A DNA stretch of 63,026 bases, counting the filler, from Platydemus manokwari (taxonomy: Eukaryota): NCBI GenBank assembly GCA_037951405.1. It is 6 parts of 6 records of this genome, joined end to end, with 100 filler letters (N's around TTAATTAATTAA, not from the genome) between each part and the next. Parts side by side here need not be neighbours in the genome. Positions count along the whole stretch, not along the records: positions 1 to 12,087 come from JBBMOY010310002.1; 5 more parts are not named here. One strand, 5' to 3'. The translations under genes were made by a program, and so were the position numbers. Below, in pieces: positions 1 through 33,636 of this stretch; position 1 is the stretch's first letter, and each line of letters starts with the position of its first letter. The notes under the pieces were generated by a model, which saw only the letters and a list, made by a program, of their open reading frames with translations, was not told where the DNA came from and searched no databases.

Positions 1-2420
1 TCAATGGTGTTGGAAATAATTGTATCAAATTGATTGGTCAATTTACAATAATAATGACCTTGAAGATTATTTGACGACTTTGTAGCTATGAATCCCGTTC
101 GATTGTCATATTCAATAGATTCTTAAATTGATGAATTATAATATTAACAATAAAGAAATTAAAACTACTGAGAATATCACCACAATATTTAAAAAATACT
201 ATTGACAACATTTTTGATTATTTGTCGAAATTTAATATTTAAATTTTAAAAGGAAAATCAATTTACAATGAATTATTATTATTATCAATTTTGAATTACT
301 ATTATTTGATTTGTGAATTTATTATTTTCCACTAGTTTTTCGATTTTGACACATATATTGTTGATATTTGATTTAAGATGTAAACATTTTTTCTTTTCCC
401 TACTCCTAAACTTTTAATTTAAAATTTAAAATTTTATAAATTAATTCTCAAATTATAATAGTAATTTTAATTATAAGAATTTTAAAATAAATCATTGATA
501 ACCAACAGTTAAAAATATATTTGGCTAGACAATTAAAGGTGTTTGGTTAATAAAAGTATTTAAAAAATTAAATATTTCTTGATCATAATATTTAGTTTAG
601 TCTTTACACCGTAAGATCATAGCAATCTATTACGGACTGAGTTATGGTTAAAACAAGGTCATTTACATCGTTTATAAGAAGTAATATGACCAATATGACA
701 CATGAAATTGTTCTTGATCCATATCGAATCGGTTATGATTAATCATCACAAATCTTTTCTTACAATAATAGATTAAATTAAAACTTGGATTGAAATATTT
801 CTTAAATTTATTTTTTTAATTCAATTAAATAAAATATCTCGAAAATGGATTTTTGTTCCACAACCATTAATTGTTGTTATTAATTATTTTGTTTCAGCAT
901 TCTGTATGTTTTCATTTATTGACCTTTTACTTATGGTATTTTGTCTGTGATTAAACTTTCGCTGGTTTATTGATGTCCCAGTATGGTAGTTCAACTTTTG
1001 TTGTTCTCTTCTCTCTAGATTCGTAATAACTTATGCTGATTTTTTGTGGTTCATATTGTGTATTACGATAATTATTTACAGTGTTATGGTTTGACGGGTT
1101 TAAATTTGAGTTAGAAATATAAATATAAAACTTAACAAATAATATAAAAAAAATTAATTGACTCAAATTTACAACTTCAGTTAAAAATCTACGGTATCAA
1201 AATATAGTTCGATGATTTCGGTTAGAACTTAAATGCAAAACAAGTGGAATACTTTTCCTGTCTACACGAAAATCATTAAATGTATAAACTTCAAAATGTC
1301 ATAAATTAACAATATCGTACTCTTTGTAATCAAGCTTTTTCTCAAATTTCCCCATGATGATTCTATTTCAACAAGTAATTATAGTTTATTCCTATGTTTA
1401 TTTTCTGAATGTGATTATGGTATTGAACTTCTAACGCTTATGCTATCTCGAGGATTACATAACACTTTATTATATAAAAATTATAACTCGTATGCTCGTA
1501 TAAGTAGTGCAGGGACCTACTCAATTGAAATTGCGCTGCAATCGATATAATATAATTTCGAAAGTAGAATTAATAGGTAAACATCGTTTTATATGCGGTT
1601 CTAATAAATATAATTCTAATACTCACTAAAATTTCGAAACAAATATTTTCCTTGATAATTTTCAAAATTTTCACTATTTAACTTAAAAGTGTACTCACCC
1701 GTGCTTTCATTTTAATAGAATTTCTCCATACATCGTTTTCCATTTTTGAAACAACATCGTTTTCTGCCACAGTCATCATCACTTAAAACATCATCTTTAA
1801 TTTAATAATTATAAACTTCATTAAAATTTTTAAATGTCATTGTTAACTGACTCGATTTTATGTTTTTCTTGTCTTATTTTGACACCACAATTTCAATTTT
1901 GGATCATTCTTCGAAATTATTATTTTATTTACGTTGGGGTTATTGTTTTATTCGATTGAGTTGAAACGTGATGTCAATCATGTAGGTGCGTGTTATGTTG
2001 TGATATCATATTTAAAATTATTTTATAATCAAAATAAAACAATAACAAAGAATATGTTGATATTTTTTATTAAAATTAATTACAAATACATAATATTAAA
2101 AAAATCTTCTTTATTTACCCTAACTTAATTAATTTTCAAACCTCTAAAAATTACAAATTTATTCAGATATGCTGAGTATATACCTAAGTATACTTATATT
2201 ATTTTATTATTATATTTTATTTTATTTAGCGTATATTATTTCATTTTTTGTAATTTGATTTTGATGTAAACGATTTTCAAACGAGAAATTGTTTTAAATT
2301 GCTTGTTATAATGTTTTTTTGTTTTATTCTTGAAAATTTTCAGTAGAAAAAATCAAATAGAAATAACTAAAACACAAGATTTATTAAAATGTGTATTTCA
2401 AAATATAATATATAAAATAT

Positions 2421-5231
2421 CTAATCTGAGTCATCGCTTAAATTGCCATCATGTGGACCTATTAAATTTTGACGATTTGTTGTACACTCTTCATGCATTG
2501 TTGCTTTATCAAGACTGTCCAATAGAAATTTCGATTCTGAATCAACTATTGGACATTTCAGATCATGAATGATATTCACCAATTCTTGTGCTGACGCTCG
2601 TAACGAGTGATTATTGGTGATATCAGACACAATTTCTGTCAAATCCTTCAAATAAATATTTAATAAATCCGACAATTTTTCAATAAAATATTGATTTTGC
2701 TTTATTTTTGCCGTTTCTACATGCTCAGATAATAAAATGACGGCTTTAGTGCGTATTGTGTTTGGCACTTCTGATTTATGAATATAATCGATAATCATTC
2801 CTAATGATTCGTCCATTCGATCCACTTGATTGAGAAATGTTAACAAAGATGAAATTCCAGCCAATCGAACATATTCATTGTCATCATAATCAAATGAAAG
2901 AAATATTGAAAGTGGAACATCGGTTAACAGGCCTGCTTGATTCAATTTAGCCATTGAATGTAGGACAGCTGATGTTATGCAATACTTGTGACTGGGCAAT
3001 GTCATATCTTCAATCAATTGCTTATTTAGAACTTCAATGAACATTTGAAGATCTTTTTCATTAACGAATGATCTTGTAACTGATGTCATTCCATTGCTAA
3101 TAGCTTTGATTACACTGGCACGAAAATGTGATGAAGATATAGCAGAGAATTGTCCAGAAACATCTAACATATCAATATATAAATGGAAAAGATCATTCCA
3201 TTTATCGGCTGTTTCTGGAATATAAGTGAATGAGACAGCCTCAATGAGAGCCAGATGAACTAAATAATCTCCAATATATCTCCAACAATTCATTTTCAAT
3301 ATCGGACTTCCTTCATCTTTCTCACAAAACAAAGAAATCAATGCCGTTTTCAATGAATCTCGAGGAAACACCGTCGACGAATCAATGAGTGCATTTTTCA
3401 ATTGACGAATCGCTTCCAGACGAATTCGAGTGGAATTCCGTCGTTTATAAACCTGATTCATCAACCATTCAAGATGATCTAATCCGTTTATTTTGTCTAG
3501 CGCCACTAAACCACAAAATTTGGCCCAAAAATTGGATTCGTTTTGTGATAACAATTTAGCCTCATCTTCTCTCATTAGATTTCTAATTTGTCCAACAAGT
3601 TTCATTTCTGGATCTAAATGAACCCAACCAAGATTGGGGCCATCAATTTGATCTCTTTTTCTCGTGATGAGTTTTTGACCGGTTTTCAAATGAGTCGATT
3701 TTGAGGATGTCGCAATTTCAACTCGATTTAACATTTCTGACTTCATCCGGACGACTTGTTTAAACAAGCCATCCGGTTCTTGAATTTCCAAATCGATTGG
3801 TCCGGCATGAAAAAACGATTTGCCATCTTGGGTTTGACCGAGTATTAACTCGATAATTTTCTGCTTTTTATGGAAATGAGCTTTGCCAGCAATGTTGATG
3901 TGGCCTTTTCTCCTAACTAACTCGCTAATCAGAGATTTCCATCGCCCAAGATTTGCCTTATCAATGATCGAGCTATTGATAAACTTTTCTCTTCTCAAAT
4001 AAAAGCGAAAAATCTCACAAATATCTCTCATCGACGAAATCAAAGCCCAACTGCGAACCACCAAGCCCGATTTTATTCGATAAAATCGCTTATATCGAAG
4101 CGGCATCGATCGCACATTCGTCACATCAAATCGCATTTCAGCTTTACAAGCCGTCCAATCCAATACGATTCCTTCGTTTTTCATCTCATACTCCACCAAT
4201 CGATCATTTTTCATTTTTATCTCATACATTGACTCTTCTAATCGTTCTTCATAAAAATAATTTTTCACGAATTCCCAACCAAAATATTCTGCAATACCCC
4301 AACCAATCCAAGAATCATGCCATGTTTTCGGTTCGATAAAAGCTCCAATAAATTGTTCACACAATCCAATCATCAACAAGTGGGGCGTGTGAAAAATCTG
4401 TTCAACGATTCGATTATTGTGAAGAAGATTCAAGTCAAAAAGAGTCAGAGAAGAAGCAGTGTAGTGTTCTTCGAGGAGATTTTCTACAAATACAGCTTTA
4501 TAATTCTCAAAAGGATATTCCATTTGAAAATTTGTCTGTAGGAATGATAAGATTTTCATCATGGGACCGATGGATGCTTTGAGATAATCGATCATTTCAT
4601 GAGGAAAATAATAGCCGAATTTAGGATTTTCGTTATCGACATAGAAATCCAATTCTCCAACAACAAACGTGATATTTCTAGCAGTCGTTTGTCGAGAAAC
4701 ATGAAAAATATGAACATCATCATCTTTCGACACAAAATCACCACTGGAGATGACAATCATATTTTCATGTGGAGAAATTATTTCAATCCACCATTCACAG
4801 GCCTCATTGAACTCAATACAAGGAAAAACCGATCCAGTTCCATTATTATATGGATTGCAATACATGTAGGTGCCGACCGTTCCAGTGCTTGAAATGACAA
4901 ATTGTAAACCACATTTATTTCCAACACTTGTAAATTGTATTAAAATCGATAAGCATTCCAATTTTACAACACTATCTTCGAATTCATCTGGAATCAAAAT
5001 TGAAATCAACTCATCACTTATTCTTTCATAAGTCGCAGGAATGGCTGCATTTTCCATGTCTGCTTTATGAATTAAAATGCCTTCAATTTCTGGACCATTG
5101 CAATTTATCTGGACCACTTTTAAATTTTGAACAAGAGGCCAAACAAGTAATTTTGTTACACCTTGAATAGACTGGTTAGCGAAATTTAATTTTCGGATTG
5201 ATAAATCTTGACGTTGAAGTTTGAAACTCAT
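2421..5231 (-). CDS. TAF2: TFIID subunit 2 (TAF2)-like protein, M1 aminopeptidase-like fold, 936 aa, single exon, divergent
   Basis: Uninterrupted 936-aa ORF. Colinear TAF2-like blocks: N-terminal FKLQRQDLSIRKLNFANQSIQG, FPCIEFNEACEWWIEI, YPFENYKAVFVE, LCEQFIGAFI..KTWHDSWI..GIAEY, GPIDLEIQEPDG, WVHLDPEM, LPSHKYCITSAVL. No HEXXH zinc motif, as expected for TAF2. Confidence 0.88.
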   Translation of the reverse strand: MSFKLQRQDLSIRKLNFANQSIQGVTKLLVWPLVQNLKVVQINCNGPEIEGILIHKADMENAAIPATYERISDELISILIPDEFEDSVVKLECLSILIQFTSVGNKCGLQFVISSTGTVGTYMYCNPYNNGTGSVFPCIEFNEACEWWIEIISPHENMIVISSGDFVSKDDDVHIFHVSRQTTARNITFVVGELDFYVDNENPKFGYYFPHEMIDYLKASIGPMMKILSFLQTNFQMEYPFENYKAVFVENLLEEHYTASSLTLFDLNLLHNNRIVEQIFHTPHLLMIGLCEQFIGAFIEPKTWHDSWIGWGIAEYFGWEFVKNYFYEERLEESMYEIKMKNDRLVEYEMKNEGIVLDWTACKAEMRFDVTNVRSMPLRYKRFYRIKSGLVVRSWALISSMRDICEIFRFYLRREKFINSSIIDKANLGRWKSLISELVRRKGHINIAGKAHFHKKQKIIELILGQTQDGKSFFHAGPIDLEIQEPDGLFKQVVRMKSEMLNRVEIATSSKSTHLKTGQKLITRKRDQIDGPNLGWVHLDPEMKLVGQIRNLMREDEAKLLSQNESNFWAKFCGLVALDKINGLDHLEWLMNQVYKRRNSTRIRLEAIRQLKNALIDSSTVFPRDSLKTALISLFCEKDEGSPILKMNCWRYIGDYLVHLALIEAVSFTYIPETADKWNDLFHLYIDMLDVSGQFSAISSSHFRASVIKAISNGMTSVTRSFVNEKDLQMFIEVLNKQLIEDMTLPSHKYCITSAVLHSMAKLNQAGLLTDVPLSIFLSFDYDDNEYVRLAGISSLLTFLNQVDRMDESLGMIIDYIHKSEVPNTIRTKAVILLSEHVETAKIKQNQYFIEKLSDLLNIYLKDLTEIVSDITNNHSLRASAQELVNIIHDLKCPIVDSESKFLLDSLDKATMHEECTTNRQNLIGPHDGNLSDDSD

Positions 5232-6663
5232 TTTTATTTTTCCAAAGATTAATCAATAAATAATAAAAGAAAAAAATTAAATTAAAAAATTAATTTTATT
5301 ATTTATTGGATAAAAAATTATTTAAAAATAAATTTTAAAATATACATTTGAAATCTACATTTAAAAACAAGCAAATTTTAAATAATATTATTAAAATTAA
5401 TAAACTCTCAATAAATTTTAAAAAATGAAATAGAGATAAGTATTTTATGCTTGATTTATTCATTATAATTAGAAATTTTTAATATAGATAAATATTTAAC
5501 CATCCTATAATAGGCTTTATTTCACAAAAACAAGAATTTTTGCAATAATGTTTATTAATTATAAATTATCATCATAAAATTGGTTGGATTTACATTTTGA
5601 AAAACAACTTTAAATTCATATGATTAAAACTAATTAAATTAAAGTGCAACAAATATGTTTAAACGTTTATGAACAAAGTCAATAAGCATTAGTTTTTAAA
5701 TATGTTAACGATTTTTATATTTACATAAGAAATATTTTCCAAAATAATATTAATTTTTTATAAATTTACCTAAATACGTCTGCATTCAAAGAAGTTTCTT
5801 TCATCACAATCTATATCTTCAAATATTTTTCACTTCCAAATATTTTTCACATCAACGAAACACAAACAGATTTCAGCAGTCGTCTCCTAAATAGAATATA
5901 AGTATTCAAGACTATCAATCTAGAGTCAATTTGACATAATCTGAATCACAAGCTCGATTGTAATAAGAAATATTGACAATGAAAGACAATGGATCGAAAA
6001 AATAGGGAGTGAAGAAAAATATAAACCAATGATTAAAAAAATAAATTGTTGGGATGAAAAAATGAAGGTGGCCGTAGCAGTTGTGAGAATATTGATAATA
6101 ACGAGAGTATTAAAAATTGAAGTATTGAAGAACAAAATTAGAGGCTTATATGATTTGTTTTGAGTAAATTTCGAATATAATTTGAAATATGGTGAATGAT
6201 TTTTGTGGAATTTAAAACCAATGATGTACAGTTATGTCGTCGCAGCTTTTGATGAAATCAATTAATTCTGGATTCATTAAGGCAATACTGAAAATGTTAG
6301 ATTTTATATCATTTACTTGTAAAAGAAATATAATTTTTGTGCATTAATAAATTTTTATATTTTTGAACCATAAATTTTATACAAAAAATTTTTACATGAG
6401 TTTTTTTCATAAAATTATCACAAAATATTTACAAATAAATCATATTCATGCCAAAAGTCAAAGAGTTAAGATAAAATCACTAATGAGTCAAATCAAAAAT
6501 CACTAATTGTCTTCATCAATATCCATCTTACACTTGGGTTTTTGCAAGCTTTGATAGGAAGATTGAAATTGAGATTGTTGGGATCTGGGTCTTATCTTGA
6601 GGTAGACTGAAGACAGGGATTATGAAGATGATCCCACTGTGGACATTGATGGTTGTAGAGATA

Positions 6664-7130
6664 TGTTGGGTTTTGGTCTTATAAGTTATCACTCCCAACA
6701 AAAATGAGTTCTTTAAAGCTGATCTGATTTAAATTCAATTCAACTCACTCGATATATAAAAATATATTATCGATTAAGATCACAGCTGTATGAATTCGTA
6801 AAACAATTATTAAATAATAAATCAAAACCAACAACACTTTTATAAGAAAAGTGCGCTATTGCAGATCAAAAACAAATTACCAAGTTTTTCAGAATAATTT
6901 ACAATTAAAAATTATTGATTTATTAATAAATCGGACCCACAAGCAAAATTATTTGATCAGCAACAAACTTAAGTTTAGCACAAACAATTTAAGGTATGTG
7001 AGTGGTCGATTCGAATTTGACGAAACGACCTATAAGTAATGATTTTGAATAATATAGATTTTAAAATGTTTTTATTCTGGCAATTTCCGCACCTTTGAGC
7101 TGCTTCTGTTTAAGCAAAGTATCCAATACC
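6664..7130 (-). repeat. 3' part of an LTR, homologous to the 3' part of solo LTR 48979-50315
   Basis: Colinear shared blocks with ~49840-50315 (reverse complement of 6664-7130 vs plus strand): aaggtgcggaa, ttttaaaatctatatt, tataggtc, gaatcg.ccactcac, ggtccgatttattaataaat, atcagatca, gaactca, tgttgggagt, cttataag, accaaaacccaaca (terminal CA). Confidence 0.8.
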
Positions 7131-7449
7131 ACCAATTGTGTGTAATTGAAGCTTGTGGATTTTTCGAACTCTATGGATTCGTCGTCTGGAAACAAGTATC
7201 GTGGTCGACAGCTTTTTTTTTAAAGTTTTCGCTTTCTGATATTTTTTTTCTCCGTTAAGTTTTTTAGATTTAAAATATTTTTATTTACATCTACCCATCT
7301 ATACATCATCCTTTTGTATAGTACTTTATTCCATATTGAATTTTCGTGTAAGGTTTTGGCTGATCGATTTCCTCTTTGAGCTGTCTCATTTGCTCCTTTT
7401 CTTGCTCATATGGTATGTATATTTTTGTTGTGTCATCCTTTTTAGTATA

Positions 7450-9588
7450 GCTATCACTGTTACTTTTTAATTCCTCTTTTTTGACTCGTTTTTTGGTTTT
7501 CTGAGAAGCTCTTTTAAATATTGGTATTTCTTTTTAAATGATTGTTTTCTAGCTCTTTCTTGTTCCCATTCCATTTTCTTTACTCGGCAGCTTAATTGCT
7601 CTAGCTCAATGAGCTGATTAGCTTTATACTCCTCAAACGGTACTCCCGATTTAATGATGTGTATTGCCTCGTCTACGCTGTCTATTTCGACTTTCTGTGA
7701 GTCGCCTGTATAATGCGTATTTTCATGCAGCTTCGATTGATAACAGCAATTATATTGATGGTGTTCGATTACATATACATCTGGGAATCCCGCTTTCTGC
7801 CTTTATTCTACTGCGGACACTTTTGTTTGAATTTCTTTCCAAGCTAAGTGTTTTGCCAATACTGGACAGAAGCATGCAGCCCTCTTCCAACCCTTCGTGT
7901 ACATTTTTTTCTAGTTGTTTATAGGACAGTAGTTAGGTGAATAGCAGCTTGGTCATCATTGCCACATAATAAATACCTACGAAAAATGAGAAGAAATTGT
8001 CCCCACAATCCTTGCAGTATGTTCATTGCTGCTTTTTTATAATGATCTGCACTTAATATCGCCTCATAATTGTATTCTTTTCCGCTTTGGTTTCCGTCTA
8101 TGATCCTTTGTACCATGAAAGAGATAACTTTGTCTTTTACTATTGGATACAGCAGGTGTTTTCTAACCCGCTCAATATCTTGCGGTGAGTAGAGACCGCT
8201 TTTTTCCATGTCTGCTATTGTTTGGAACTCTATTCCCCTTGATGTGCCGTTTAATTCTAATTTCTTGGACTTTTGCAGCTAGTCGCCTATCTGGAGTCGT
8301 TATCCATTGGTCTTTCCCAATCTCATACATTGGCTCGAGGGGGTTTAAGCACGAATCGATTTCCTTGGGTTTGTTTTTCCAATCTGTCAATATTCTTGTA
8401 ACAGACAGCACGTATACCATTTTCCCTTGATACATCATTGCTAACACATTTGCTCATTTGGCACGTGTGCTAGCATAACTTGGACCGCTTGACATTTGAA
8501 GGTGTGCAACACTTCTCCGACTACTCTGGCAAAAATTCCTCTTTTTTTAAACACCACTGGTGCCATTAGTTCTGGACTAGTGACAGTTACTGCGATTTTC
8601 GTTAGCAATAATTCTCTATTAATTCTCCAATCATTGGTTATTGTTTCTTGGTATAATTCATACATATGGCCAATTTGTTTATGGTATAAATAATCCATTT
8701 TGTTGTTTACATAAGGCCATTTTTACGTCATGCTTGTCTACCGTTTTTCTGGACTCTTTGATTTGCCTGAGGGTTAAATATATGCCTTTGTAATTGGTTG
8801 ATTTTACCGCTTTGCCGCATTTAACTGCTTCTCCTTTCTCTATGAATCTCATGGCATCTGATGTACTGGTTGATACAAATATCCTTGGCGTTGCTTTTTA
8901 GTGAACAGGTATGTTTCTCGCTTCCTCGTATCTCTTTTTCTTATTTTCATCGGTGGTTGCCTTCCGCTTATTACATAAAAATTTGTTGCTTTTAGGAAGG
9001 CTAAATTGCATGCATACTGATCTATTTGATAAACTATCATAGATTCTCCTGTGTCACAACTGGTTTTATTTGCTGTGTAAAATGAATGTGTCATAATTTT
9101 TCTGGTGGATGTGTCGATCGCTGCTTGAAATTTTCTAAGTTGTTTTTGATACTCGCATTCTACTATTGATGTTTGTTTCCACCCGACTATATTTCTTTGT
9201 TACTGTATTATCTCTCCTAATTTTGCTATTAATTCTATGCCGTGAATTTTTAAAATTTTTGTTTGAAATGCAGGTTCACATTCTATTGTCGTCACTATGG
9301 CTGCTATCGGACTGTATGTTGGCTTTAGTGTTGTCGTGTATCCTCCGTTGTTTGAGCAATAGAAAACAGACTCTTGGTATGTTACAATACATTCTTTGCT
9401 ATTGTTCTTATGAAGTCTCCTTGATAAACATGGTATAACTTCTTCCCTTCCTGTACCATGGCCACAGGATTTACCTCCGGGCAATCCTTAATATCGAATA
9501 ATGAATATTTCTGCTCCATTTTTGGCTTTGCACAGTCAAAGGCTACGATTATTTCAAAAATAGTCATTACAACTAGCAGTAATTTCAT
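7450..9588 (-). pseudogene. Chuvirus-type (gB-like class III) fusion glycoprotein / env, copy 1, frameshifted
   Basis: Signal peptide MKLLLVVMTIFEIIVA then FDCAKPKMEQKYSLFDIKDCPE. Also NNKMDYLY, GIFARVVGEVLHTFKC, TRIL, PMYEIGKDQW, SGLYSPQDIERVRKHLLYP and TM FSFFVGIYYVAMMTKLLF. These match the recalled chuvirus G pattern (YDC..SLLD..C; GEV.H..KC; SGIY...D.......I.FP). Basic KIRKR is a possible furin site. Confidence 0.8.
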
Positions 9589-12087
9589 GATAGTTGGATT
9601 TACTTTGGCCAACTTTTTGGCTTTCTTTATGGCCTCTTTTTGTTTGATTTCTCTCGTTGTTGGACTGCTTGAGTCGGTTGATAAATCATCGTTTTTTTCT
9701 AAAAGCATCTTTTTCAACGCCGGTTTGCCTATTATACGCTTTGATCTTTCTTCTTCGATTTCTTGGTCACTATCGCTTTCAGTGAAAATCTTTTTCCGCA
9801 ATTGTTTATGTGCCACCTTGAACTCTGACTCATTTCTTGGTCTTTGCTGCGTGATCAGTGTTCGTAATTCTAATATATCTTTTATTATTCGATTATTTCT
9901 ATCTGCTTTGAGACTTTTCCCATTCTTCTTGTATTTTCGTTATTTTCTCTTCAAAGTTTTTAAATCTATCATCCCATACAGCATCACCGTGACAGCTCTG
10001 TGATGGGGTATACGACAGAGATGGATTCGCTATCGCATTCGTGGTTATTTCTATTGGTGTTATAAAATTATCATGTATTTGCAGCATGCCTTTATCGATC
10101 AAATAGTCATCATCCAGTATTTTTCGGCCTTCGTAAGTCATATTAAATGTTGTGTAAACCATGCCTTTTTCTCTTAGGGCTTTATAAAACCACTTTCTTA
10201 ATTTTCTTCTTGTAGCACAAACATGAAATTTATGGCAGCCATTAATCACATGTTCATAGTCCCATTCGTAATAATACAATGTGGTAATTGGTATTGTTTT
10301 GTGGCATTCCTTATGCTGTCGAATCAATTTGCCCCTTATTTCAATTACTTAATGATATTTATCGCTCTGTCCCCCATAGAAATATATGTTATCTTTTACA
10401 GCAGTGATGTGATCGAATATCTCTGTTATTGCTGTCTTGTTCAAACCTTGTTTAATGCATATGGTACAAGATCTACAGTTTCGTCAATGTGAATCAACAT
10501 ATCTTTTCCCCATCTATCTAGGGTACTTTGTTTCTGTTTACCCAAAAATATAAAAAGACTGATTTGTATTTGCTCCGTTAATTCATTAAGTATATTATCT
10601 TATTACCGTCGTTTCAACCAATACACCTTTGATTACGATTCGGTCTGAAAGTCTATAATGCTCATCTTCACTTTCTTCATTAATATTCTTACAGCGATAA
10701 TTATCGATGTAAGTCTTCATTTACCACAATAAATTGTGGCAGTTTACTTACTTATCAAATTGCTTTCTTATCTAACAAATCAGTTAACAATTCATTCCTT
10801 TACCATTACCAATATGAAATTTGATTTAAGACATAGTATATATCTTCTAGTATATATCAGTGAACTTACAAACATTCAGCTGCATTCATACTTAAATAAA
10901 ATTTTCCGATTTAAGAATAACCGCAACAGATGAAAACTCAATTTCAATCTCGATACCAAAAATCATTATCATAAATCATTCTGCAGAGCTATCCAATTTT
11001 ATTTTGAATATTTTTTACTTTAGTTTAGATTGGATTGTTTGGTAATTTATGTTGTTGTATATTTTCTGATTTACCGGTGTGCATGTGTGTATGGCTGCCT
11101 GTTCATGCCTGCCAATGTTCATGTTTAAAAATGTATTTTCAATGTTCCACAGTAAGCGGTTTTGATTCATTAACTTCGCATTTCACACAAGTACGAAAGA
11201 AACTTCATCTCCACTGCTAAATTATTTGTATCTGTATTAACGTACCAATATTTAATAATATTACCCACAAAAGATACGATCGGTCTTGGTGTGTCATTTG
11301 ATTTCTATTAAAAGTTTTAGACAGAACTTCAATCACCTTTTCTTTGAGGGTTTTAAAAGTAAATTTCTGCAAACAAATGGGTTTCATGATTATGACGAAT
11401 TATTTTGTTACAATATTGATTATTATTCTTTTATATTCCTCTGGTAAAATCAATTGTAAAACACCATAACCAATCTAATTCAACTATTACGTCAGAACTA
11501 ACGATAAAGAGTTGCTCGAAAATCATCCCAAAGTTTTAGATTTACCAGAAAATAACTTTCAACGATAATTATTGAAATAAGTATTGAGTAGAAATTAAAA
11601 CAAAGTAAGTCGTTATGCTGTCAAATAATCACAGATTAATTTCAGATGATTGAACAGCTTATTATGAAAGCAGCAGGCAGACTTTTATTTTCAGCAAGCC
11701 GCGCAGAATTCAAGTGCTTTAAAAATCTGCTAATCTTCAGTAAAAACGATTTTAAATTTTCAGCATACCATATGTTAAAATTTTTGAGGTGATTCTTGGC
11801 TTTATCAGATAAATCTGCATGTTGAAGGATATTATGTATCTATTTATTGTATTAATTTATAAATTATTGAATGGTTTATTTATTCGTTTGATATTGTTTA
11901 TATCTTGAACGCAATGAAAATCAAAATTTAACTTCGAATTGCTTTGAAAATGTAAATAAAATATTAAATTCAAAACTTTTCATTAAATAATGTTCATCAA
12001 AAACCGTATTTGGTTTGTCAAATGAAGAATTATAAATCTAAAATTTGTATAAGATTTTATATAGTATCACTTATTAATAACTTATTA

Positions 12088-12187
12088 NNNNNNNNNNNNN
12101 NNNNNNNNNNNNNNNNNNNNNNNNNNNNNNNTTAATTAATTAANNNNNNNNNNNNNNNNNNNNNNNNNNNNNNNNNNNNNNNNNNNN
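12088..12187. other. Artificial contig linker (N44-TTAATTAATTAA-N44)
   Basis: 100-bp N run with a central six-frame stop 12-mer. Confidence 0.98.
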
Positions 12188-16955: not shown

Positions 16956-17865
16956 TTAAAAAGTCGTGTCAATCTGACACATGTTTCCTCTAATTTTCCA
17001 ATCCGTGCTCTCATTTTTGTCAGTGATATCAATTCCATATAAGTTGACCAGCTGCTTTATGTTTTTCGGCGGTGAAACTCCTTGGAAAGTAAGCGCTGCT
17101 ATAAAGTGCCAGTTTTGCTTTAACACGTATTTCATTATATCTTCAAAGTCAAAATCCGATTTAATCTGAATGGCCAAAACAAGGTTTGAGATATTAATGT
17201 ATTTCTTATAATCATTGATTGGACGATAACAGTCAACGGTCTCCATACATTTGCCACTGGTTAAAACTTTAACGAATCTTTTTCCCAAAAAAGCGTAATT
17301 TTTTTCTCCATCGCTACGCATATCATATTTAGGCAGAATGACCAATCTGCTATTCATATATGTGCCAGTAGCCATTATTGTCATGTTTCAATTGCCTTTA
17401 ACTATTGAAATAGCTTGAGTACCGTTTAGAATTCTAAGTGCGTTAGGACGTCTGTACCCCTTGAAAGAAGTTATTCCTTGTAGTAGTTGAAATGCTGCAC
17501 TATTCGAGGCTCCTTCGAACTGAAATGGAAATCAAGCATTGGTAAGAAAATGAATTTTATTTTACCAAATCATTGTATCGATTATTGATAAATATCGACA
17601 CATTCGTACATGCAGTATTGGATTGACATATTTCATGAAATGAAAACAACTGACACATCGATTGATTTCTATTGTATATAAAGGCTTTACAAGCTGCCAA
17701 ATCACATTCTACTGCACATTGTATCCGTGATGTCGTAAATATTGATTGCATAGAATTGAATACACAAGACTTCATGGAATGATAAACTGAATCCGCATTG
17801 ATATCACTCAATAAAATAATAAGAGACCAGTAAAACATTAAAAATGTTAGAGAAATATAAATCAT
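16956..17865 (-). pseudogene. Two-exon secreted PAN/apple-domain protein (exons 17865-17566, 17519-16956) with one in-frame TGA at 17390-17388
   Basis: Hydrophobic signal peptide, then PAN motif SRIQCAVEC...CKAFIYN....CQL. A 46-nt phase-0 GT-AG intron joins in frame to FEGASNSAAF...VKGN*NMTIMATG, which continues to the stop at 16956. Confidence 0.65.
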
Positions 17866-18299
17866 TCCTTTATATAAGATTATTGGATGTGTGTTTATTT
17901 CATTCTTATTTCATTGGCTGTATGTATTGCTGACGAGGAATTTGTTTAATTCTTTTATGTTATTGAAACGAAATTGTTTAAATTGACAATTTCCAGATAA
18001 ATTTTAAATATTAATATTACAATTAATTTCATTCTTATTGTCTTCGTTTTTGATATAAATAAAAATGGCCAAATCTTATTAATTTTTATAATTTTTATAA
18101 TTTTAAAACTGAGAATTAAACAAAATTTTTAAGAAGATTCTTTTATAAATATTAATGTGGTATATTTATTTCTAATAAACTTTTTTAAAAAATATCTTTT
18201 AAGTCAAGTTTTCATAATTTTATTCTTATGTTATTATATTTTTAAATGAACCACAAGTTCCCACTATTTAAAAATCTTTAATTGTTTCAATATTTCTTT

Positions 18300-21200
18300 T
18301 TATTACTTTTCCTTTTTCGTTTTGTCATTGTTAGCTTCTTTCATGATTCTGCTCTATCACTTCGTTTCAGCCTTAATATCCTTCTAGATCCTTATTCCGC
18401 ATTTCATTTTTATTAGTACTCTTCTTTGAATTTGCGTTTAGTTGGTGTTTCTCTATCTTTACTTTGTTTTTATCTCAATGTTCTTCTTTATCTTATATCT
18501 GTTTATTCTACTGTTTGCTTAATTCTGTAATCTGTCGATCTTTTCCCCGAATATGACCTCTACTGCACGATCATTTATGGTTTTTAACATTATTGCATTC
18601 AACATGTATTCTATCTCTGGTAATTTTGAAGCCCAGTTTGTATTTTGTCTCTCCTTTTTTCGTCGCGTTTATATAATCTCTCATTGTTCGAAATTGTCGT
18701 TCAATGATTCCGTTCTCATTTAGAAAGCATTCGTAGCCTTTTTCCCAATCTACATGTATTTCCTCTGGTGCTCCTCTTGCTTTCAGAGTCTATGGTTCTT
18801 TCTTTGTTTCTGCTGTTATTATTTTAGTTTTTTGGAATGCTTTATACTGACTTAGAATTTTTTCGTTTGTCTTTCAAATCGAAATTATTGTTCATGTATT
18901 GTGTAACTTTCTTTGTTCCTGCTAGAAACAGCGATTTGTGTGTGTTCTATCATTTCTTTTATTTTCTCTACTGGTATTAAGATTTTGTTTTATTTAGTTT
19001 TTACTATGTCTTCTTCGACTATGTAATTAATACTTCATCTTCGACATATCGCTCTTTTTATTATTTCTGTCTCATCAATGTTGGTTTGCTAATTTTTACT
19101 TTCTTCTCTGTAATTATTGATAATATTATGGTTTTTATTTTTCCGTGCTGATGTTATTTTTTCTGTTAGACATTTAGAACACATCGTAAAGGTATTCTTT
19201 AAGATGATGTATGCATTTCCATGATTAGCTCCTTGTCTTAAGATAATGTTTATATCAAGGATGATTTAGCCATGTTTAAAATTGTAGAGTTATGGGGTTC
19301 TTTGTCTTCAGTATGAATGTGATTTATTTATGATCGGTTGTTAGTGTGAATCCTTTTCTGTACTAAGAGTCATTGAAATGCTGACAGAAGTAATATATTA
19401 CCAGTAATTCCTTTTTGGTGATACAATATCCTTTCTCATATTTAGTCATTGCTTGAGATCCGTATGCAATGACTCTTTCATTTTCTCAAAAGTTACATGG
19501 TTATCTAGGATGAACTCTTTATTTTAATCTGAGAATGACAGGATCAGTGTTTCTGTCAGAGCATTTTTCATGTCTTTGAATGCCGCGCTGCATACTTTAT
19601 ATCACATCAGTTTGTCATTATTTTCCCCACACAATGCTTCTAGTGCACTTGATTTCTTCGAGCATTCCTTCATATATTTTTTGTAATATCTGCAAATTCC
19701 AATAATACTTTGTAGGTTCTTAATAGATTTTGATCTTTAAAATTTTTCTATTGCTGAGTCTCACTTTGGTCTGTCTTAATACCTTTTATTCTTATATTAT
19801 GACCAAGGAACTTAATTTATAAGCCGTCAAAATATAAAATGGCTACTTTCTATCATATCACCTAGCATTTCTTCAATAATTCTTTAAATTCTCCCGGGTC
19901 TTCTGCGAACTCAAGCGGCATCAGTGGAAGCAGCATTCCTCCTCTTTCATCAAGAATGCCGTGTTTTATTATGATTCTTAGTCAAGCTTTACTTAATTAA
20001 TATACATACAAGTGAGTATTTCATGGTAAATTACATCTTATAATATTGTTTACTCTTTAATATTTAATTGCTTCTTCTTTCCTTCTAAATTCCCTGGTTA
20101 TGTCTGATGTTTGATGTTTATGGGACTGCCGTTTGTTATCATTTTATGTACAACTATATATTCCAAAACGAGAACCTCCTTTACCGCAAGACATTCTTTT
20201 GTTGGCTCGGATCCATCTTCATTGATTATACTTTTACCAAATCTTCTTTTTATCTCACAAATGAAGTTGTATTAATTTTGAAACTCTAATCCGCCTAAAC
20301 TCTTCAGTTTCATGTGCTCAAATATTATGATTAATATAATCGTGTACTGACTTCCTCGATTTAGTTTCATTCTGTCTTTGAGTTTCATATACTGTCTTTG
20401 GCACATCGTAAACTTTCACTTGTATATTCGATTTCTACTTGCTCGAGTGTCTTTACCATCGTGTTATTCATTACATTTAGTCTAACCTCAGTGTTTAATA
20501 AACAATCAATCTTATTATTCACTATTTTATACTCGTGCTTGGTCTCTCTTGCATTTTATAATAAGAAATTCGGGAATAGTTCAACTATTTGATAGTTAAT
20601 AATCTAACTTCTTTCTGGTCTCCAAGGTCTTTTTCTGCATTGTCAGTAAACTTTTATTTAGATATTTTGCAATATTACATCTTTTATGTTCTACGCATTG
20701 CCTTATTTGTTTATTTTATTGCTTATTTTATTTATTTTAAATAGCTTAATTATTTATAAATTAATGTGGACAATGTTGTACTCAAAATGATGATCAAGTA
20801 TATCTGAATTAATATAAATATTTAAAAAATTAATCTCAACTTTGATGACATCACCCTGCTCACAGGTAAAACTGCAGCCAACCATACCAAGGGGACAAAT
20901 TTGTAGTAATGAATAAACCCAACCTAACTTCTTCTCCATTGTCAATCATCTTTTCTTTTGAAATTTTGCAACTTTTTATTTTACTCTCCTACCTGATTCT
21001 ATATTATTGTTGTTACCGATTACAATTTGGTTTTCTACTTTCTAATCTTTTAAGTTCTGGCACTGCGTTGTTTGTTAATTTTACCTAGATTATTTATATT
21101 ATAAATAATATTATGTCTAATTATACTCTCGGTATTGTGCTCACACTTAGATATACTGTTTAGTTGCACGTCAAGACTTTCTCACTATTGCAATTTCATG

Positions 21201-21500
21201 CGATATGCCCTGGACTTTTTTCGCAATTATAGCACGTCCTATTTTATGCTCTTCCTTTACGGACTCCTTGGTTTTGGTTACTCTCTCACTATTGTTGATT
21301 GTTATCTTAAAAAAATATAAGAACAAAAAGAAGGTAGTGTTTTACATTTATTAGCTGCTTAACTAGCAATAAAAGAAGGGTTTAGGCTAAGGCCCTGGAC
21401 TTGACACAGAAGTTACAACTGCTGTAAATTAACCCAAACAAGCTGAAAATCAGACTTAGAAACTGATAAAATAAAGAAGGATTGAAACAAATTAAGCAAA
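18300..21500 (-). mobile_element. Highly degraded Ty3/Gypsy retrotransposon (gag/protease/RT/RNase H/integrase traces)
   Basis: Minus-strand remnants MPLEFAEDPGEF, IKFLGH and LQSIIGICRYYKKY...LEALCG (RT thumb), with strong purine skew across the region. Many stops. Boundaries approximate. Confidence 0.65.
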
Positions 21501-23173: not shown

Positions 23174-24000
23174 ATTTATTATTAATTGAAAAAGGAATAA
23201 GAGGAGGAATTAGTTCAGTTCATGGAAATAGAAAAGTTATTTCAAATAATGGAATAAAAAATCAAAATTTTGATTATTATTATAAACCAGAAAGATATGA
23301 ATGGGATCAAATAATCAATTATTCAAAAAAAGATAATTTTGATATGTCTAATTATTTTAAAGAAAGAATATCAAAGTACTATGATGCAAATTCATTATAT
23401 GCTACTTGTATGACAAAACCTTTATTAACAGGAGAAATTGAAGAAGTTGAACCAATCTATGAATCAACGGTATCAGATGAAATAGGATTTATTTATAAAG
23501 TTGATTTGAAATATCCGAAAGAAATTCATGATAAAACAAAATATTTTCCATTATGTCCAGAAAAATTTTAAGTTGTTGATAGTTTATTATCAGAGTATCA
23601 ACTAAATAATCGATCTAGTGTTATAAAAGATGGGAATGGTATTTATTCAGAAAAACTAATGTTAACTCAATTTAATAAATGGAATTATATTGTAGAAGGA
23701 TCTTTATTAGATTATTACATTAAACAATGAATGATTTTAATAAAATTCCATAAAAAACTAAAATTAAAAAAACCAAGATGGTTAGAAGGATATATAAAAC
23801 ATAATATTGAACAAAGAACTAAAGCAAAGAATGAAGGAGATAAATTTGGAGAAGAATTTTTCAAACTTTTAAATAATTCATTTTATGGAAAAACAATTGG
23901 AAGATGTTAGAAAAAGATTGAATATATCAATAGTTTCATCTGATAGAGAATTTCAATTATTAGCATTGAAATTAACATTCAAAAGAGCAAAGATATTCAC
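23174..24000 (+). pseudogene. Protein-primed-type family B DNA polymerase fragment (Maverick/Polinton/adintovirus-like)
   Basis: IEKGIRGGIS, YYDANSLYATCM (motif A), GFIYKVDLKYPKEIHD...PLCPE, FFKLLNNSFYGKTI (motif B). Contains in-frame stops. Confidence 0.85.
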
Positions 24001-26359: not shown

Positions 26360-29300
26360 TTAAAATTTTGAGTGTGAATTTATTTTGCTTTTTCCTTTCG
26401 TTGATGACATGAATTTGAGGAAATCTGAATAGATAATTCTGTAGAATAATACGATATTCATCAGGGTGATGATGGCCATTCCAATGCTACCGATTGTAAA
26501 ATAACCGAGACTGACATTGTGACGATTTTTCACTAACCATCGAGTCATCCAACATAGTGTCACCATGCGAAAAATGACAAATGTTCCTGAAAAAGATTGT
26601 AATGATTTACGAAAGACCCAAGCAAAATAATATCATTAAAATGTGTTAAATGAACACTACATATATATTGATATATAAGCAGTTCATAATATAGCGATAT
26701 AGATTTAGAACATATAATTTTAAGTACAGAATCTATTTCAAATGGGTAGCCTAGTGCGTACGCATTCTGGCACCCTAAAACATGAAAACATAATGTAAAA
26801 TAAAACATTACCAACATATATTCTATATAGTGAATTTAAACAAAATTTTGTGTAATTTTATCTAATATTTTTTAACTATTTATACCAGTCGATAATATGT
26901 ACTTTATATAATAATTTTAATTTATTATAATATAATTATTTTTTTTAATTACTTATCATATTGAGCTACCTTCATTCATCGTACTGGTAGCTCAATCTAT
27001 AATCCATTATGAATTGGATATCTTCAAGTTTTCGTACTCCAACGGGATTTATCTTAACTACAATAATGCGTCAGAGTTTATTGCATGTCAGGGCTTTAAA
27101 ATCCCATTGGAGTTCTGCGCGGATTTTTAGACACAATATAGTAATCTTGGGTTTAGAATTACTTGATGAATTGGTCTCTCAATTAGTATATAAACGGATA
27201 GCTATTTATTAGATTTCTCTTAGTCATATATGTCCCTGATCCGAGGCCCACGGATGTCCGCATCATAAAATCATCACCATCATAATAAGGCCGAAATAGG
27301 ACTAATTTTCAGCAATAGACAGTTTATTTATTTATTTTTCCTATTTTGCATATTCAACCATGATTTAAAATAAAGGTAAACATAGAAGTAAAGATTTTAA
27401 TCCATTTTCTGTACAAAATAAACATTCGTATTAATATATTAAAAAAAATTATTGATTATTAACAAGAAATAATGAATTAATAGACCTTATTTTAAATAAA
27501 AAATTTTCAAAAATATAAAATAAATAAATTTATTGGAATATTTTTTTAATTATTATTTCTACACCATTTCCGACGAAACATGTAAAAATGTAAACACGTG
27601 TAAAAGAATATAATAAATATAAAATTTGATTAGCGAATGATCACAAAATAATCCAAGTAAATCTTTGAATTTATTTTCTCAACAATTTAGACAATTTTTA
27701 AACATTTTTGCTAAATTATGAATAACAAGATATTGATAACAACCGAAACAGTCGATAGGAATCGACTTAAAACGTATTTACAATATTATTGTCGAAAGTT
27801 CACCATAGCATGGTAAAAATGTAACTATTGATATTAGTGTGAATGTATAATAATGCCTGGATCACAGACACACCCATTATCATACATATATGGATTATAA
27901 TTATCGATATAGCTCATTGAAACAGCAATGTATAAGCAGTAAACAATAGAATACATACAGATAATATACCATGATTTATGTATGTATGTGTGTGTGCGGG
28001 AACATGAGATAAACCATCAAAAAACCACACGCATATTAAACAATTAATTTGAGCAAATCATATAAATTAACCATGGCGACAGAGTACCGTAGCTATCTCA
28101 ACACATACAAACTTAGTGGAGTATTTTAACGCAGTATATTCCATAAACACTTATTTTGTTTATTTACTCAAGAAAATATGACGACGGTGTAGCTAAGACG
28201 ACAAAAGCGTGATTTGCACGATAATATTGAATTTTTAATGTGAAATATATTCATCGACCACATTAAACTATCAATATAATTAAACAATCCGCATTTCAAA
28301 GTGCTATGATTACAGACCGCTAAAATGGTGTTTATAATTTTCATAGAACAAAATTTCTTATTCTCACGTGTACAGATAAATTTCACTATTGAAGCGGTAA
28401 CAACAATCTTGGTAATAATTCTATTAGAACACTACCGACAAGTATTTGAAAATAAATCTAATAATGGATCACACAAACATTGCCATCAATGTTAAATATT
28501 ATTTATGTTTCAAATTTAGAGGTCATTTACTGAAAGTTCATTTATAAAGTACTATATATGGTGTCACCCTATTTAACCTGGTGTTCAACTTTGATATCGA
28601 TCTTTTTTGCTGCGTTATCGCGATAAAATATATTAATTCTGAAATTGATAATTCAGTATTTTCAAATAAATCTCTAAGACTATTGAGATTTTCTGAATAA
28701 TGCAGACCGTAAGCAAATATTTAACATAAGGAGTTGCAATAATTACTTTATTTCGCTAATGGTTATGAGAAGCACATCTTTGATTAACTTACTGACTGTA
28801 ACAATTATGAGGTAAATTATTAAATCCATATTGTGATTATTTTCGGGTTTTTCCACAAATATAATTGATTATCTCGTGTACCCAAATTTAGACATCTCCA
28901 TCTATTATTTACATATATTTTTAACGGCTGTTTAAGGTGCAATATTTTCTGAATAAATATCATTGATTTATTGTTTATGTGACCTTTGTCGATTCTTCAG
29001 TTGTTAATTATTCTGATATGCAAAAATTAATGCCTGATGGCAGTTCCCGTGTCTAAAATCTATTCTAGTATCGAAGGTACATTGTAAGTAAATCAATTAT
29101 TAAAAAACTGAAAAAAAAACAATCGACCTTTAGATATTATTCAAATTTTCGTTACAAAATTATAATCGAATTTTTTTATTCATCTTTGATTTCGTGTGAA
29201 TTTTGTTTATCAATAACCCTAATATTCAAGTGGCTATTTAAACAATAAAATCGATTCCAGATTTACCTATATTCAATATATTGTTCGTTCTGTATATCGG

Positions 29301-32300
29301 GCTAGATTTATTGAATCCCAATAAACCTAATATCTGTCTCAAATGGAGAAATATAGAATTCACTTCCACTAACAAGGCCACTAAAGCATAACCGACAAAC
29401 AAACGAGTAACCACGGAAATGCCAAAACAAATTAAAATCTAAAATGAAAGAAAAATAGATATAATATAAAATTCACCAAAATCAATCTCACTATGAAATG
29501 GTGAAATACTAGTTCATATGATTGTCTTCCTGGTCCCTTGGTGATCATGTCAAATGCATCATGGATAAAATAGCCTGAATATCAAAGACTCGAAATAGAA
29601 ATATTTTGATGAAAATCAAAATGAAAACAGTTCCAAAATTCATCAAATTTCAATATTAAAAATAGAAGGACATGGGTTTGACTCGAATTGATATTTTATT
29701 AATTATTAATAGTCTGATAACAATCATGTAAATAAACACTGTAAAAATCGGAAGTTTGAAAACATTGGTCTGTGATGCCTTAAGATAACCTTATAATATT
29801 TATTGTATACAAATATATAAATAATCGATATTCAGTGTTAAGTAAAACTACGTTACAAAATTATTTCACACAGTTTTTATCAAGATCTGCAATTTTTTGT
29901 AACAAATCTTGTACTTTAATAAAGGTCCTGGAAATAAAATATGGATGAGTTTGAAAATATTGCAAGATAGGTTTTCTCATTCGAACATAAAAACATTTAG
30001 AACTGGCGGGAATAGAACAAAAATTATTGATTATTACAAAATAGCAGTCTCAAATCGGAATGATTCAAAAATATACATATTTCGGAAGTCCCGAAACTTA
30101 TATGTACAACATTTAAAAGCAACACGAAAAATAAATCATTGTTTTTCTATAGCTTGGTGCGTGGAGGAACTGATCACTTGATAAAAATTTATGAAAAAAA
30201 GTAGAAATTAAATTAATAAAAATCGATTTATTTCATCTGAAAGTGTTAAAATAAAATTAAGATTAAATCATGGCTTTGAATAATTTCATGGGAGGATAGC
30301 GAATGAGATTGCGTTATATTGTGCTGATAAAGTTCAATAAATGTGTTTTCGTCAGATGGATCCCAAAGAGTATAGAACAAGGAAAATAAAGTATAACAAT
30401 TAAACAATGCTTGAGAACAATTTTGATTTGGGGCTGTATGTCATTTTTCGGTGTTGGAAAAAAAATCTTAGATTTGTACATACAAGCGTTGAGTTTCAAA
30501 AGAATCGAAGGTTGTAATCTGTATTTTCATTCACGAGTACTAATCAATACGATACAAAAACCTCCAAAATTCGACAAAACATAAAAAACACAATCTAAAA
30601 CTTGGCTTTCAACCTGCAGTTTGAAATCAGTATTTACAGTTGAGATTTGTGTGCAAATTTTGTATCACGTTTGTATCACACATTGATTTGATCTTTTATT
30701 TCTCATGTTTCTATTGTATTTATTGATTTTATATACTCGAGATTGATCAATCCTTGTGTATATGTTACCGTGTGACTATGTCTCTTTTTCGAATTATAAT
30801 TTTCCATTTAAGTCAGCTGTGATTGGTTGGTTGCTATGCCTGGATGGTTGTGCAGGCTTGCAAATACTTAAAGTGCAAAATCGTTATTGTTTTTGTGACA
30901 TTTCATCTTTACTCAACACAAATTATTTTAGTTAAAAAATAATAATATCAATGAAAACAATAATTTAAAATTATTAATGCATTTGAGCATAATTGATTTT
31001 GTCTCACACTTTCCAAATAAAATTGTGATATTAATTTGGTGCACTAAAAACTAATGGAAATCAATTTAAAAATGAATTAAAATTAAATCAATCATTTTAA
31101 AATCATTTATAACAATTTTATGCAAAAATTACCTCACATATCCACAAAATTCAATCACAAACAGTTCAAGTGATATTAAAATTTTCAAAAACTAGATTTC
31201 AACATATTTATTGATTTTTAAGGAATTATTGATATAAAACGTCTCGATAATAAATGAAGTAAATTGCTATAAATATTCAACTGTGATTCGAATTAATTAA
31301 TGTCAAACGATGTCATTTTAATAACAGAGATAAGGTGTATCATGATAATATTTTTCCAGAAAAAATTACGAAATTCCGAAAACAAATTAATTAATTAGAC
31401 GTTCCATATTAGAAATCAATAATTAATTAATTTTAAAAATGATTTTCATTTTAAGAGATCTCAAGTTTAATAAGAAATCAATATTTTAATCATTTTAATT
31501 AATTATTGGTATGTTGGATTTGTTTTTTAAAAATATTTTAATCAATAAATAAATTACAGCCAACCCTGTTTAATATGAACATATTTTAATGTGAACATTT
31601 AAGTCCAGAATTATTGGAAATTATATGGTTTACATAGGAAATTATGTTTTATAATACGAACACTGTTTATTTTGAACAATGGACAAAAAATAGTCCAAAA
31701 TAAATCAATAAATTATACAATTGTTGTTTAAATATTTAATTTTTAACTGTCTTTTATGAACATGAAAAACATAAATTCAAAACGAAAGAGAAAAGATTTA
31801 AGTATCGAAGAGAAACGGAAATTGTTAAAATTATTCGATGAAGATAAATGTTGTTCTCAACACCTTCTTTCATCAAAATATAATCTTTCATTAGGCTGTA
31901 TAAATAATCTGAAGAAATCTTTAGATTCCATTTTAAATTCAAACTTGAATATCAAACAAAAATGACAAACACATTGACGTAGTGGATATCAAGTTGATGC
32001 CATCTTCTTATATCAATGATTTCAGATCCAGAGAACAAGAAATATCACTATCAGTGGTGATATACTATAACAAAAAGCATTATAATTAGCAAATCACTTA
32101 AAAAATCATGATTTTAAATCATCATAAAGTTAGCTTGATTTTTTCCTTTCCAGACATATGATATCATCGAAAAAAATTATTGGGGAACCTAAAATCGTAG
32201 ATGAAAGGTATGTTCTTAATTTTAAGAAATTGTGATAAGGTTACACAAGAGATATGATGAAAAAAGGTTGATTTATATCAAGCAATAGTTTGGATTTCGA

Positions 32301-33636
32301 AAGCATGGAATAGTGTAAAACCTGCGACTGTTTCTAATTGTTTTACCAAGTCTTCAAAAAATGCGTATGTTAAAGAAATGAATATCGAATGTGATGATTT
32401 TCCATGTTTTGAAATTAATCCAAAATTTGACGAAGATATCTTGTTTAATTTAGTCGAAACATATGAAAATGAAGAAACAAATGACAATTCTGTTGAAGAG
32501 ATGGAAGAAGATACAGCAATAACAGGATTTGAAGCCTATCAGTATGCAAGAAAACTTGAAAAATCCTTCCAATCTAATATTCCTGATAAGGTGAACAAAA
32601 TATGGGATTTAATTTGAAGAACTTCAAGTAAAAAAAGCATCCAGGCAATTTAAAATCACAGACTTTATTATGTGTCAATGAAATAAAAATTGTGTTAAAT
32701 AGGCGTAATAAATACTTTTTGTGATATCTTTGATATTGTTATGTTAATAGCTGTTTATATTATTTTTTATTTATGAACATTTGAAAAAATCGGAACACTA
32801 ATGTTCATATTGAACAGAGTCGACTGTATAATCAACATTATTTTTTTTAATAATAAATATTATTAATAATAATCATTAAATTAATTTAAATTTCGCGTTC
32901 AACATTTGTTTATTTATTGAAAGCACTTCTCATAACATATTGTTATATTATTAAAATTTAAATATCAATTAAACTTAAAGTGCAAATGTGACACATTTTA
33001 CAAAGTACACCTATTTGTAATTCTGAAGTATCATAATCATTATAATTGCCTAATCACTCTACGGCATATCTAGCCGTAATAATTGGTACTCCCAGACCTT
33101 ATTTGTTCATAAACAGCTAATTATGCATACAATTCTTTCTGAAGCACATATTCAAATCAAATGATTCAGTTAATTTGTGTAATTATACAAGTACAAGAAA
33201 TCAAAATACCTAAGGAAAATGAAACTAAAATTACACTTCCTTTTGTGTGCGTGTTGATTAGGTCCACTCGAATATTTTCGTTTAAATAAAAGCTGGAATG
33301 AAATATTGGAACATTATTCGATGAAAATATCTTTATTCAACATTTATTTGAAAATAATAATCAAAATATATGAATGCGAAAATACTAAAAATCAAATTAA
33401 AAAACTTACCAAAGAACTGATAAAGATCCAGTTATAAATGAATGCAATAAGGACATTAGGACATTTCTATATTTCCAAAAAATTTCCGAAGATTTTAATT
33501 GGGTATTTTTACTGCCATTTTGAGTAATAGAAAGCAACCTCGGTGGTCCCAAAACATTCACAAAATGATTCAAAACGTAAAATATGAGAAAACTAGCAAA
33601 AATTGTAGGCAAAACAATGAATAAAAAACTTTCCAT
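26360..33636 (-). CDS. TLC domain-containing membrane protein (TLCD1/TLCD2-like), 263 aa, 5 exons: 33636-33410, 33292-33210, 29574-29492, 29438-29267, 26586-26360
   Basis: All introns are GT-AG with consistent phases (227+83+83+172+227=792 nt). TLC motifs: WKYRNVLMSLLHS, GYFIHDAFDM, ELVFHH, LLVEVNSIFLHLR, TFVIFR, MNIVLFYRI. Confidence 0.9.
31557..32826 (+). mobile_element. Internally deleted Tigger/pogo (CENP-B-like) DNA transposon in intron 2 of the TLC gene
   Basis: 26-bp TIRs (CAGCCAACCCTGTTTAATATGAACAT vs CAGTCGACTCTGTTCAATATGAACAT, 4 mismatches) with TA on both sides. HTH KRKRKDLSIEEKRKLL, C-terminal AIVWISKAWNSVKPATVSNCF and an acidic tail. The DDE core is deleted. Confidence 0.9.

Follow-up and report, generated by a model that had tools for sequence, protein, structure and literature searches.

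Does the chuvirus-like glycoprotein at positions 7450–9588 record a virus that was endogenised in the genome of Platydemus manokwari, or does it belong to a mobile element of the host? The window analysed here, a stretch of 63,026 nucleotides made up of six contigs, contains 71% A+T, and a value above 70% is reported for the Schmidtea genome in PMC11410931. Apart from the glycoprotein, most of the recognisable sequence in the window is decayed mobile DNA. We find that this glycoprotein, termed env copy 1, is not an endogenised chuvirus. In all probability the locus represents a truncated, broken remnant from a multi-copy Ty3/gypsy family in which a chuvirus/gB-type env likely lies in frame between gag and protease (gag-env-pol, Burro-like), and whose host is likely a triclad flatworm. 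The initial annotation had missed the nature of the carrier, a Ty3/gypsy element whose env precedes the protease in frame, which is a group already described in PMC6431247 and PMC13524379.

Anatomy of env copy 1 and its flanks

Env copy 1 occupies 9588–7836 on the minus strand of the contig that spans 1–12087 of the window. It matches the Pfam family PF24664 (Monjiviricetes_fusion) with an E value of 4.3e-20, passing the cut-off, and as a second copy in the window is linked to the same family, the profile search upholds the chuvirus/gB-type identity for both. The six motifs quoted in the initial annotation were all located on the minus strand: FDCAKP at 9540, GLYSPQD at 8197 and NYEAILS at 8071 in copy 1, and YDCGKP at 52744, GIYAAED at 51359 and NYEALLS at 51236 in copy 2. 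Counted over 9582–7836, copy 1 is interrupted by 3 stops and 7 frame changes; near some of these frame changes deep relatives differ from it in length, and the changes at those sites therefore probably arose in copy 1 alone. The extent originally given to the glycoprotein, 7450–9588, requires correction. Its larger part, 9588–7836, is glycoprotein, while 7450–7836 is a charged linker devoid of any profile match, and the element fragment as a whole is longer, running from ~10500 to ~7250. Within this fragment G+C amounts to 0.35–0.37 compared with 0.25–0.28 in the flanks, and contig depth drops to the single-contig level above 10509, at its upstream edge.

The env starts with a predicted internal signal peptide (9541–9588, minus strand), which shares one open frame (9939–9382) with the linker upstream and comprises a hydrophobic 17-mer of mean Kyte-Doolittle value 2.49 immediately N-terminal of FDCAKP. 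The decayed ectodomain (7952–9540, minus strand), assigned to class III (chuvirus G/gB-type), is colinear with that of the relatives in tblastn (best E 4e-75), and its domain I appears by eye ~25 residues shorter than theirs. The assignment of a class III fold is based on Pfam and PMC13524379; a sequence profile of one alignment (A2) searched against the PDB retrieved no solved fusion protein, only DDI1-type proteases. A predicted transmembrane segment and a subsequent hydrophobic helix, both present in all relatives, are placed at 7836–7951 (minus strand) by tblastn, hydropathy and the C-termini of the relatives, and tblastn pieces at 7889–7806 align to P0007, P0008 and P0134. Hydrophobic segments, signal-like and of membrane type, are thus found at both ends of env copy 1.

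Downstream, the charged post-env linker (7250–7835, minus strand) is still covered by multi-copy contigs, after which the element is lost. A profile of 56 protease sequences detected no protease after env copy 1 (best iE 5.4); none lies within 2.6 kb downstream, nor any gag within 2.4 kb upstream. Neither RT nor LTR was found beside env copy 1, and no LTR-like direct repeat on the 9–12 kb contigs. A repeat common to 6661–7098 and 49848–50318 (69% over 487 nt, in opposite orientation relative to env) is very deep at 7000–7120; it ends copy 1, lies inside the interruption between protease and RT of copy 2 and is likely a separate high-copy element.

Upstream of env, the stop-free frame 10348–9902 on the minus strand harbours a putative ubiquitin/SUMO-like domain of the element polyprotein (10058–10234). 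It was detected with a home-made profile derived from 12 relatives, whose sole significant match in the six-frame translated window is at 10234–10058 (iE 1.1e-4, 11 bits); across 20 windows that had been reversed or shuffled, no score exceeded 1.3 bits. Such a domain is located upstream of env in 12 of the 18 relatives searched, and one of the profile seeds, P0137, gives a weak Pfam ubiquitin match (E 0.018). Searching the frame directly left Pfam and Atlas blank and returned only chance-level RNase P matches from the PDB. Between the ubiquitin-like domain and env, 9589–10057 (minus strand) translates into a charged low-complexity linker with one frame change, which matched neither Pfam nor an 11-sequence interval profile. 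No BCL2-like domain was found before env copy 1, a weak test, as few stored relatives show Bcl-2 (P0009 and P0136).

The second element and the divergence of the two copies

Env copy 2 (51069–52756, minus strand) was identified by tblastn and by its match to PF24664 (E 7.1e-17, cut-off passed). It is more decayed than copy 1, with 12 stops and 4 frame changes, and its contig (43665–52891) ends 135 nt upstream. Approximately 60–75 codons after env begins a retropepsin with the motif LIDTGAD (50570–50863, minus strand), which passes the cut-off for Pfam RVP (E 1.9e-4) and just misses that for gag-asp_proteas (E 5.6e-6). The spacing between env and protease matches that of P0010 and falls short of that in P0005. 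The protease lies in another frame than env, and ~1.4 kb of other DNA intervenes before RT. The decayed pol that follows (47005–48968, minus strand) retains a pre-RT domain, the RT (RVT_1, E 7.7e-10) and the integrase core (rve, E 0.042), but has lost RNase H and the zinc finger of the integrase by deletion. It is colinear with P0005, P0138 and P0141 at 30–60% identity, and colinearity with P0005 extends from env to integrase. The relatives that resemble it most in env do so in RT as well, so the pol of copy 2 is likely native to its env. Beyond a ~1.4-kb interruption, a post-integrase continuation (45489–45593, minus strand) matches P0138, P0139 and P0141 by tblastn at E values of 1e-4 to 1e-3 and a profile at iE 1.9e-6. 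Copy 2 has no ankyrin and a single protease, close after env. Gag was seen in neither copy, copy 1 being a fragment and copy 2 meeting the end of its contig. In the decayed frames of the minus-strand tail of the second element (43665–45600), where Pfam was blank, inspection by eye suggests a hydrophobic stretch near 45300, one of membrane type near 44190 and an end that resembles fibronectin III.

The two envs had been described as colinear paralogs. Their colinearity is confirmed by six-frame tblastn between the contigs, in which they align in the same order (E 7e-18, 3e-17, 7e-10 and 7e-9); with regard to paralogy, it is more apt to assign each of them to an element family of its own. Amino-acid identity between them is 39–43% over 228–311 codons. 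Codon mapping through five different relatives yielded nucleotide identities of 0.55–0.60, 0.66–0.70 and 0.39–0.42 at the first, second and third positions, the second being the highest and the third the lowest. With pN at 0.37–0.40 and pS at 0.65–0.70, dN/dS is about 0.27–0.34, a value taken from well-aligned columns only and with dS near saturation, which shows constraint and measures it poorly. The env lineages diverged under protein-level constraint, as had been proposed for a diversified group. Cysteines were likewise said to be kept, and both copies have cysteine at 6 of the 9 cysteine positions mapped in both (through P0138).

That more than two copies exist is borne out by a public sequencing run, X1, which possibly derives from the source sample and is the one run used for copy number. 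In it, 350 contigs are at least 80% alike to 7000–10600 (47 at 99% or above, 48 at 95–99%, 107 at 90–95% and 148 below 90%). Exactly matching pieces have a depth of 14–18 and variant letters depths of several hundred; depths summed in this way do not give the number of copies. The family of copy 1 is multi-copy, and we infer roughly tens of copies.

Elsewhere in the window, 2424–5231 (minus strand) encodes an intact, intronless and fast-evolving TAF2 frame of 936 aa, with three relatives at 43–54% identity, which is possibly a retrocopy or a lineage-specific paralog. CAF1A at 61483–62953 is split over several frames, and exact protein look-up retrieved neither of the two. A decayed RT/RNase H of another gypsy-type element is located at 19267–19816 (minus strand), and related pieces at 21071–21295 and 55401–55957 match each other. 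The fragment at 23176–23568 (plus strand), with a DNA_pol_B_2 match below the cut-off (E 2.8e-4), we take to be possibly Polinton-like. Further weak matches below the cut-off were noted to a DDE_1 transposase at 32261–32614 (plus strand), to a TLC domain at 29241–29438 (minus strand) and to a PAN domain at 16959–17910 (minus strand).

Relatives of the env and its origin

A phmmer search with env across 1.84 billion proteins returned 126 matches, 10 of them at E values of 1e-30 or below; an earlier word-index search of longer proteins with part of copy 1 had found none among 718 candidates. The Pfam domain scan covered 19 of the 126. Eight of the ten strongest relatives carry retropepsin and/or RT after env in one chain, one of the remaining two has a weak Bcl-2 match before env, and the other is a bare fragment. 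Searching with the glycoprotein of P0006 gave 13 proteins of 2099–4029 aa, all with RT or a protease annotation (7 were scanned with Pfam). Ty3_capsid or Retrotrans_gag domains are carried by relatives, and gag precedes env in P0008, P0019, P0134, P0136, P0137 and P0142. The order is Ty3 capsid, CCHC, Bcl-2, env, protease and ankyrin in P0136, and CCHC, ubiquitin (weak), env, protease, RT, RNase H and integrase in P0137; P0130, with ankyrin repeats, measures 4844 aa. In intact relatives env is in one frame with gag and protease, whereas the decayed copy 2 has fitting spacing in different frames. Linkers from env to the first protease reach ~300 residues. A metagenome scan revealed at least one locus among 596 candidate stretches, L001, in which a single frame of 3426 aa encodes env, protease, RT, RNase H and integrase; a scan of IMG/VR with P0009 gave no match.

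Some features of these relatives deserve mention in their own right. Directly after the long frame of L001, at 10617–12104 (plus strand), lies a frame of 496 aa that encodes an RNase_T exonuclease domain (E 1.4e-5) and possibly serves the element as an accessory gene. P0005 (NCBI HBK71150.1), a polyprotein of env, protease, RT, RNase H and integrase, is filed under a Flavobacteriaceae MAG and likely represents misbinned animal (eukaryotic) DNA. Several retropepsins are common in the env-bearing polyproteins P0004–P0142, with 56 domains in 25 proteins and 2–7 per protein in 16 of the 25. In 8 of these 25 stored relatives a retropepsin follows the integrase, and D-[ST]-G is present in all 56 domains. 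A limited literature search found no paper on the presence of several proteases in such elements.

For an env tree, 138 of the 142 stored proteins matched the env profile; 83 covered at least 380 columns and 55 were dropped, resulting in 85 rows with both window copies. The tree, from a quick search, is unrooted and says nothing on the env donor. One branch of 30 rows (SH-aLRT 97) unites the two window copies with every one of the 23 rows that bear a protease. Outside it are 54 of the 57 stand-alone virus-sized rows, which by their length and their score with the profile were taken for viruses or EVEs; the three inside are N-terminally cut fragments that begin at residue 1. The two window copies are sisters (99), a value that shared decay and A+T bias may inflate. 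Taken together, the domains of the relatives and the 30-row branch bear out the earlier view of an env-bearing retroelement rather than a single endogenised virus fragment.

One rival is that a jingchuvirus glycoprotein was endogenised as a non-retroviral EVE, was copied by host retroelements and came to lie near pol fragments by accident. PF24664 is indeed a family of viral fusion proteins, stand-alone glycoproteins of ~650 aa are among the 126 matches, copy 1 has no pol beside it, and in arthropods such EVEs have been reported close to fragments of Gypsy (PMC10084718). The stand-alone matches are weak, however (E 1e-10 to 1e-3, about 19–28% identity), and lie outside the branch with both copies, so that the tree largely refutes this origin; moreover, a ubiquitin-like domain of the element type precedes copy 1. 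Adjoining viral N or L genes, which would speak for a viral fragment, were looked for in the minus frames of both regions and in 110 other frames, and no match was obtained. We therefore give this explanation very little credence. Even harder to accept is an element of the Anakin type, a BEL/Pao retrotransposon with a captured chuvirus G. This pairing is known from mosquitoes (PMC7642597) and its env is of the same Pfam family, but the frames scanned contain no Pao-type Pfam family, the gag domains of the relatives are Ty3_capsid or Retrotrans_gag, and env precedes protease in copy 2. Troyka (PMC12440569) was also considered and, as described there, has no bearing on copy 1.

Copy 1 might instead be a non-autonomous or deleted derivative that consists of the ubiquitin-like domain and env, had lost pol and was moved in trans. 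The lack of protease and gag within the distances given above, in a 3.3-kb piece that is nevertheless multi-copy, would fit such a derivative. Yet the fragment ends at another high-copy repeat, where depth jumps (7000–7120), as in simple truncation, and the long env–protease linkers of the relatives argue in the same direction. As far as origin is concerned, this possibility, which we judge quite improbable, does not conflict with the explanation that we prefer. A more far-reaching proposal, unlikely but less so, is that the genome has a deep sub-branch of its own, whose young, unbroken, high-copy members would be a working enveloped flatworm retrovirus outside the family in which Burro was described. 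The wider group would cut its giant membrane-spanning polyprotein with several retropepsins, and its env would be an old sister lineage of chuvirus G, possibly donor rather than recipient.

On the basis of these data, we prefer a broken piece of a Ty3/gypsy family of the gag-env-pol type, and suggest the following model for its intact members. A single polyprotein of 3000–5000 residues would be made, whose internal signal peptide may route env into the ER and free gag, which stays in the cytosol. Env would be held in the membrane by the transmembrane segment, with protease and pol remaining on its cytosolic side, and there the retropepsin(s) of the element could cut RT and integrase loose. Env might finally let particles fuse with other cells, although the introduction of PMC13524379 calls the infectivity of such elements unclear. 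Selection would have acted on env during transposition of the families, and copy 1 presumably decayed after insertion and is inactive.

Comparison with known systems

GAG-ENV-POL errantiviruses of the Ty3/gypsy type with an HSV/gB-type env are described from Nematoda, Bryozoa and Platyhelminthes (PMC13524379), among them Smed_errantivirus_1–6 of Schmidtea mediterranea with 45, 215, 3, 8, 1 and 1 copies, respectively, according to the supplement. Like copy 2 and the relatives, these have a gB/class III env before pol, and they are multi-copy. In two gap-free blocks of env domains I–II aligned by eye, Smed_errantivirus_3 agrees with copy 1 at 29 of 46 (9139–9002) and 24 of 40 positions (8891–8772), as compared with 27 of 46 and 21 of 40 for the best stored proteins; the blocks are author-chosen and the margin is small. 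This agreement and the A+T content of the window together make a triclad host likely; a microsporidian host, which the intronless TAF2 had at first suggested, became improbable when flatworm elements emerged as the closest named ones. By this visual comparison it appears to be the closest named match to copy 1 in PMC13524379, whereas the nematode errantivirus rows seen there look unlike it. In contrast to the Smed elements, copy 1 is broken, truncated and from another genome, and gag, LTRs and a primer-binding site are not seen.

Burro (GYPSM1) comprises giant gypsy-like LTR retrotransposons of more than 30 kb in dugesiid planarians, with decayed fragments in Dugesia japonica; its env, in frame between BCL2 and protease, matches mononegavirus fusion glycoproteins, and a ubiquitin/SUMO-like motif lies upstream (PMC6431247). 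Copy 1 resembles Burro in the putative ubiquitin/SUMO-like domain upstream of env, as detected with our home-made profile, and the relatives resemble it in their Bcl-2 and ankyrin domains and large size (up to 4844 aa). Burro has a BCL2-like domain directly before env, for which copy 1 gave no match, and copy 1 is accordingly called Burro-like and not filed as Burro; copy 2 differs in its lack of ankyrin and in the single protease that follows env at a short distance. From their spans of 14.5–18 kb, we infer that the Smed_errantivirus entries are of the Burro type; Burro is not named in the main text of PMC13524379.

Two other pairings of animal genomes with this glycoprotein can be set beside copy 1. 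Anakin (PMC7642597) is similarly an LTR retrotransposon with a chuvirus-type glycoprotein in many copies, but its pol is BEL/Pao, not Ty3/gypsy, and its hosts are mosquitoes. The Jingchuvirales glycoprotein EVEs of arthropods (PMC10084718) belong to the same Pfam family and are decayed in animal genomes as well; unlike copy 1, they are stand-alone virus-sized genes, and in our tree the stand-alone rows are separate from the branch to which the window copies belong.

Chuvirus-like G matches in AT-rich invertebrate assemblies or metagenome bins can be retrotransposon envs instead of relics of a chuvirus infection. The finding touches on the infectivity of such elements and on the direction of fusogen exchange between RNA viruses and retroelements, neither of which a broken fragment can advance. 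With it, the gag-env-pol retroelements that have a class III fusogen gain one further genome, in which at least two divergent families occur, and between families it shows a signal of purifying selection on env. An env of gB/class III type with terminal hydrophobic segments is present, env precedes protease, RT and integrase in copy 2 and the relatives, and domain order and Ty3-type capsid matches in the relatives agree on a Ty3/gypsy placement; by analogy with these, copy 1 itself would have had the order gag-env-pol. We file it among the GAG-ENV-POL gB-type errantiviruses, as an element that works like Burro: the layout is already published (PMC6431247; PMC13524379), and copy 1 is a new, broken example of it.
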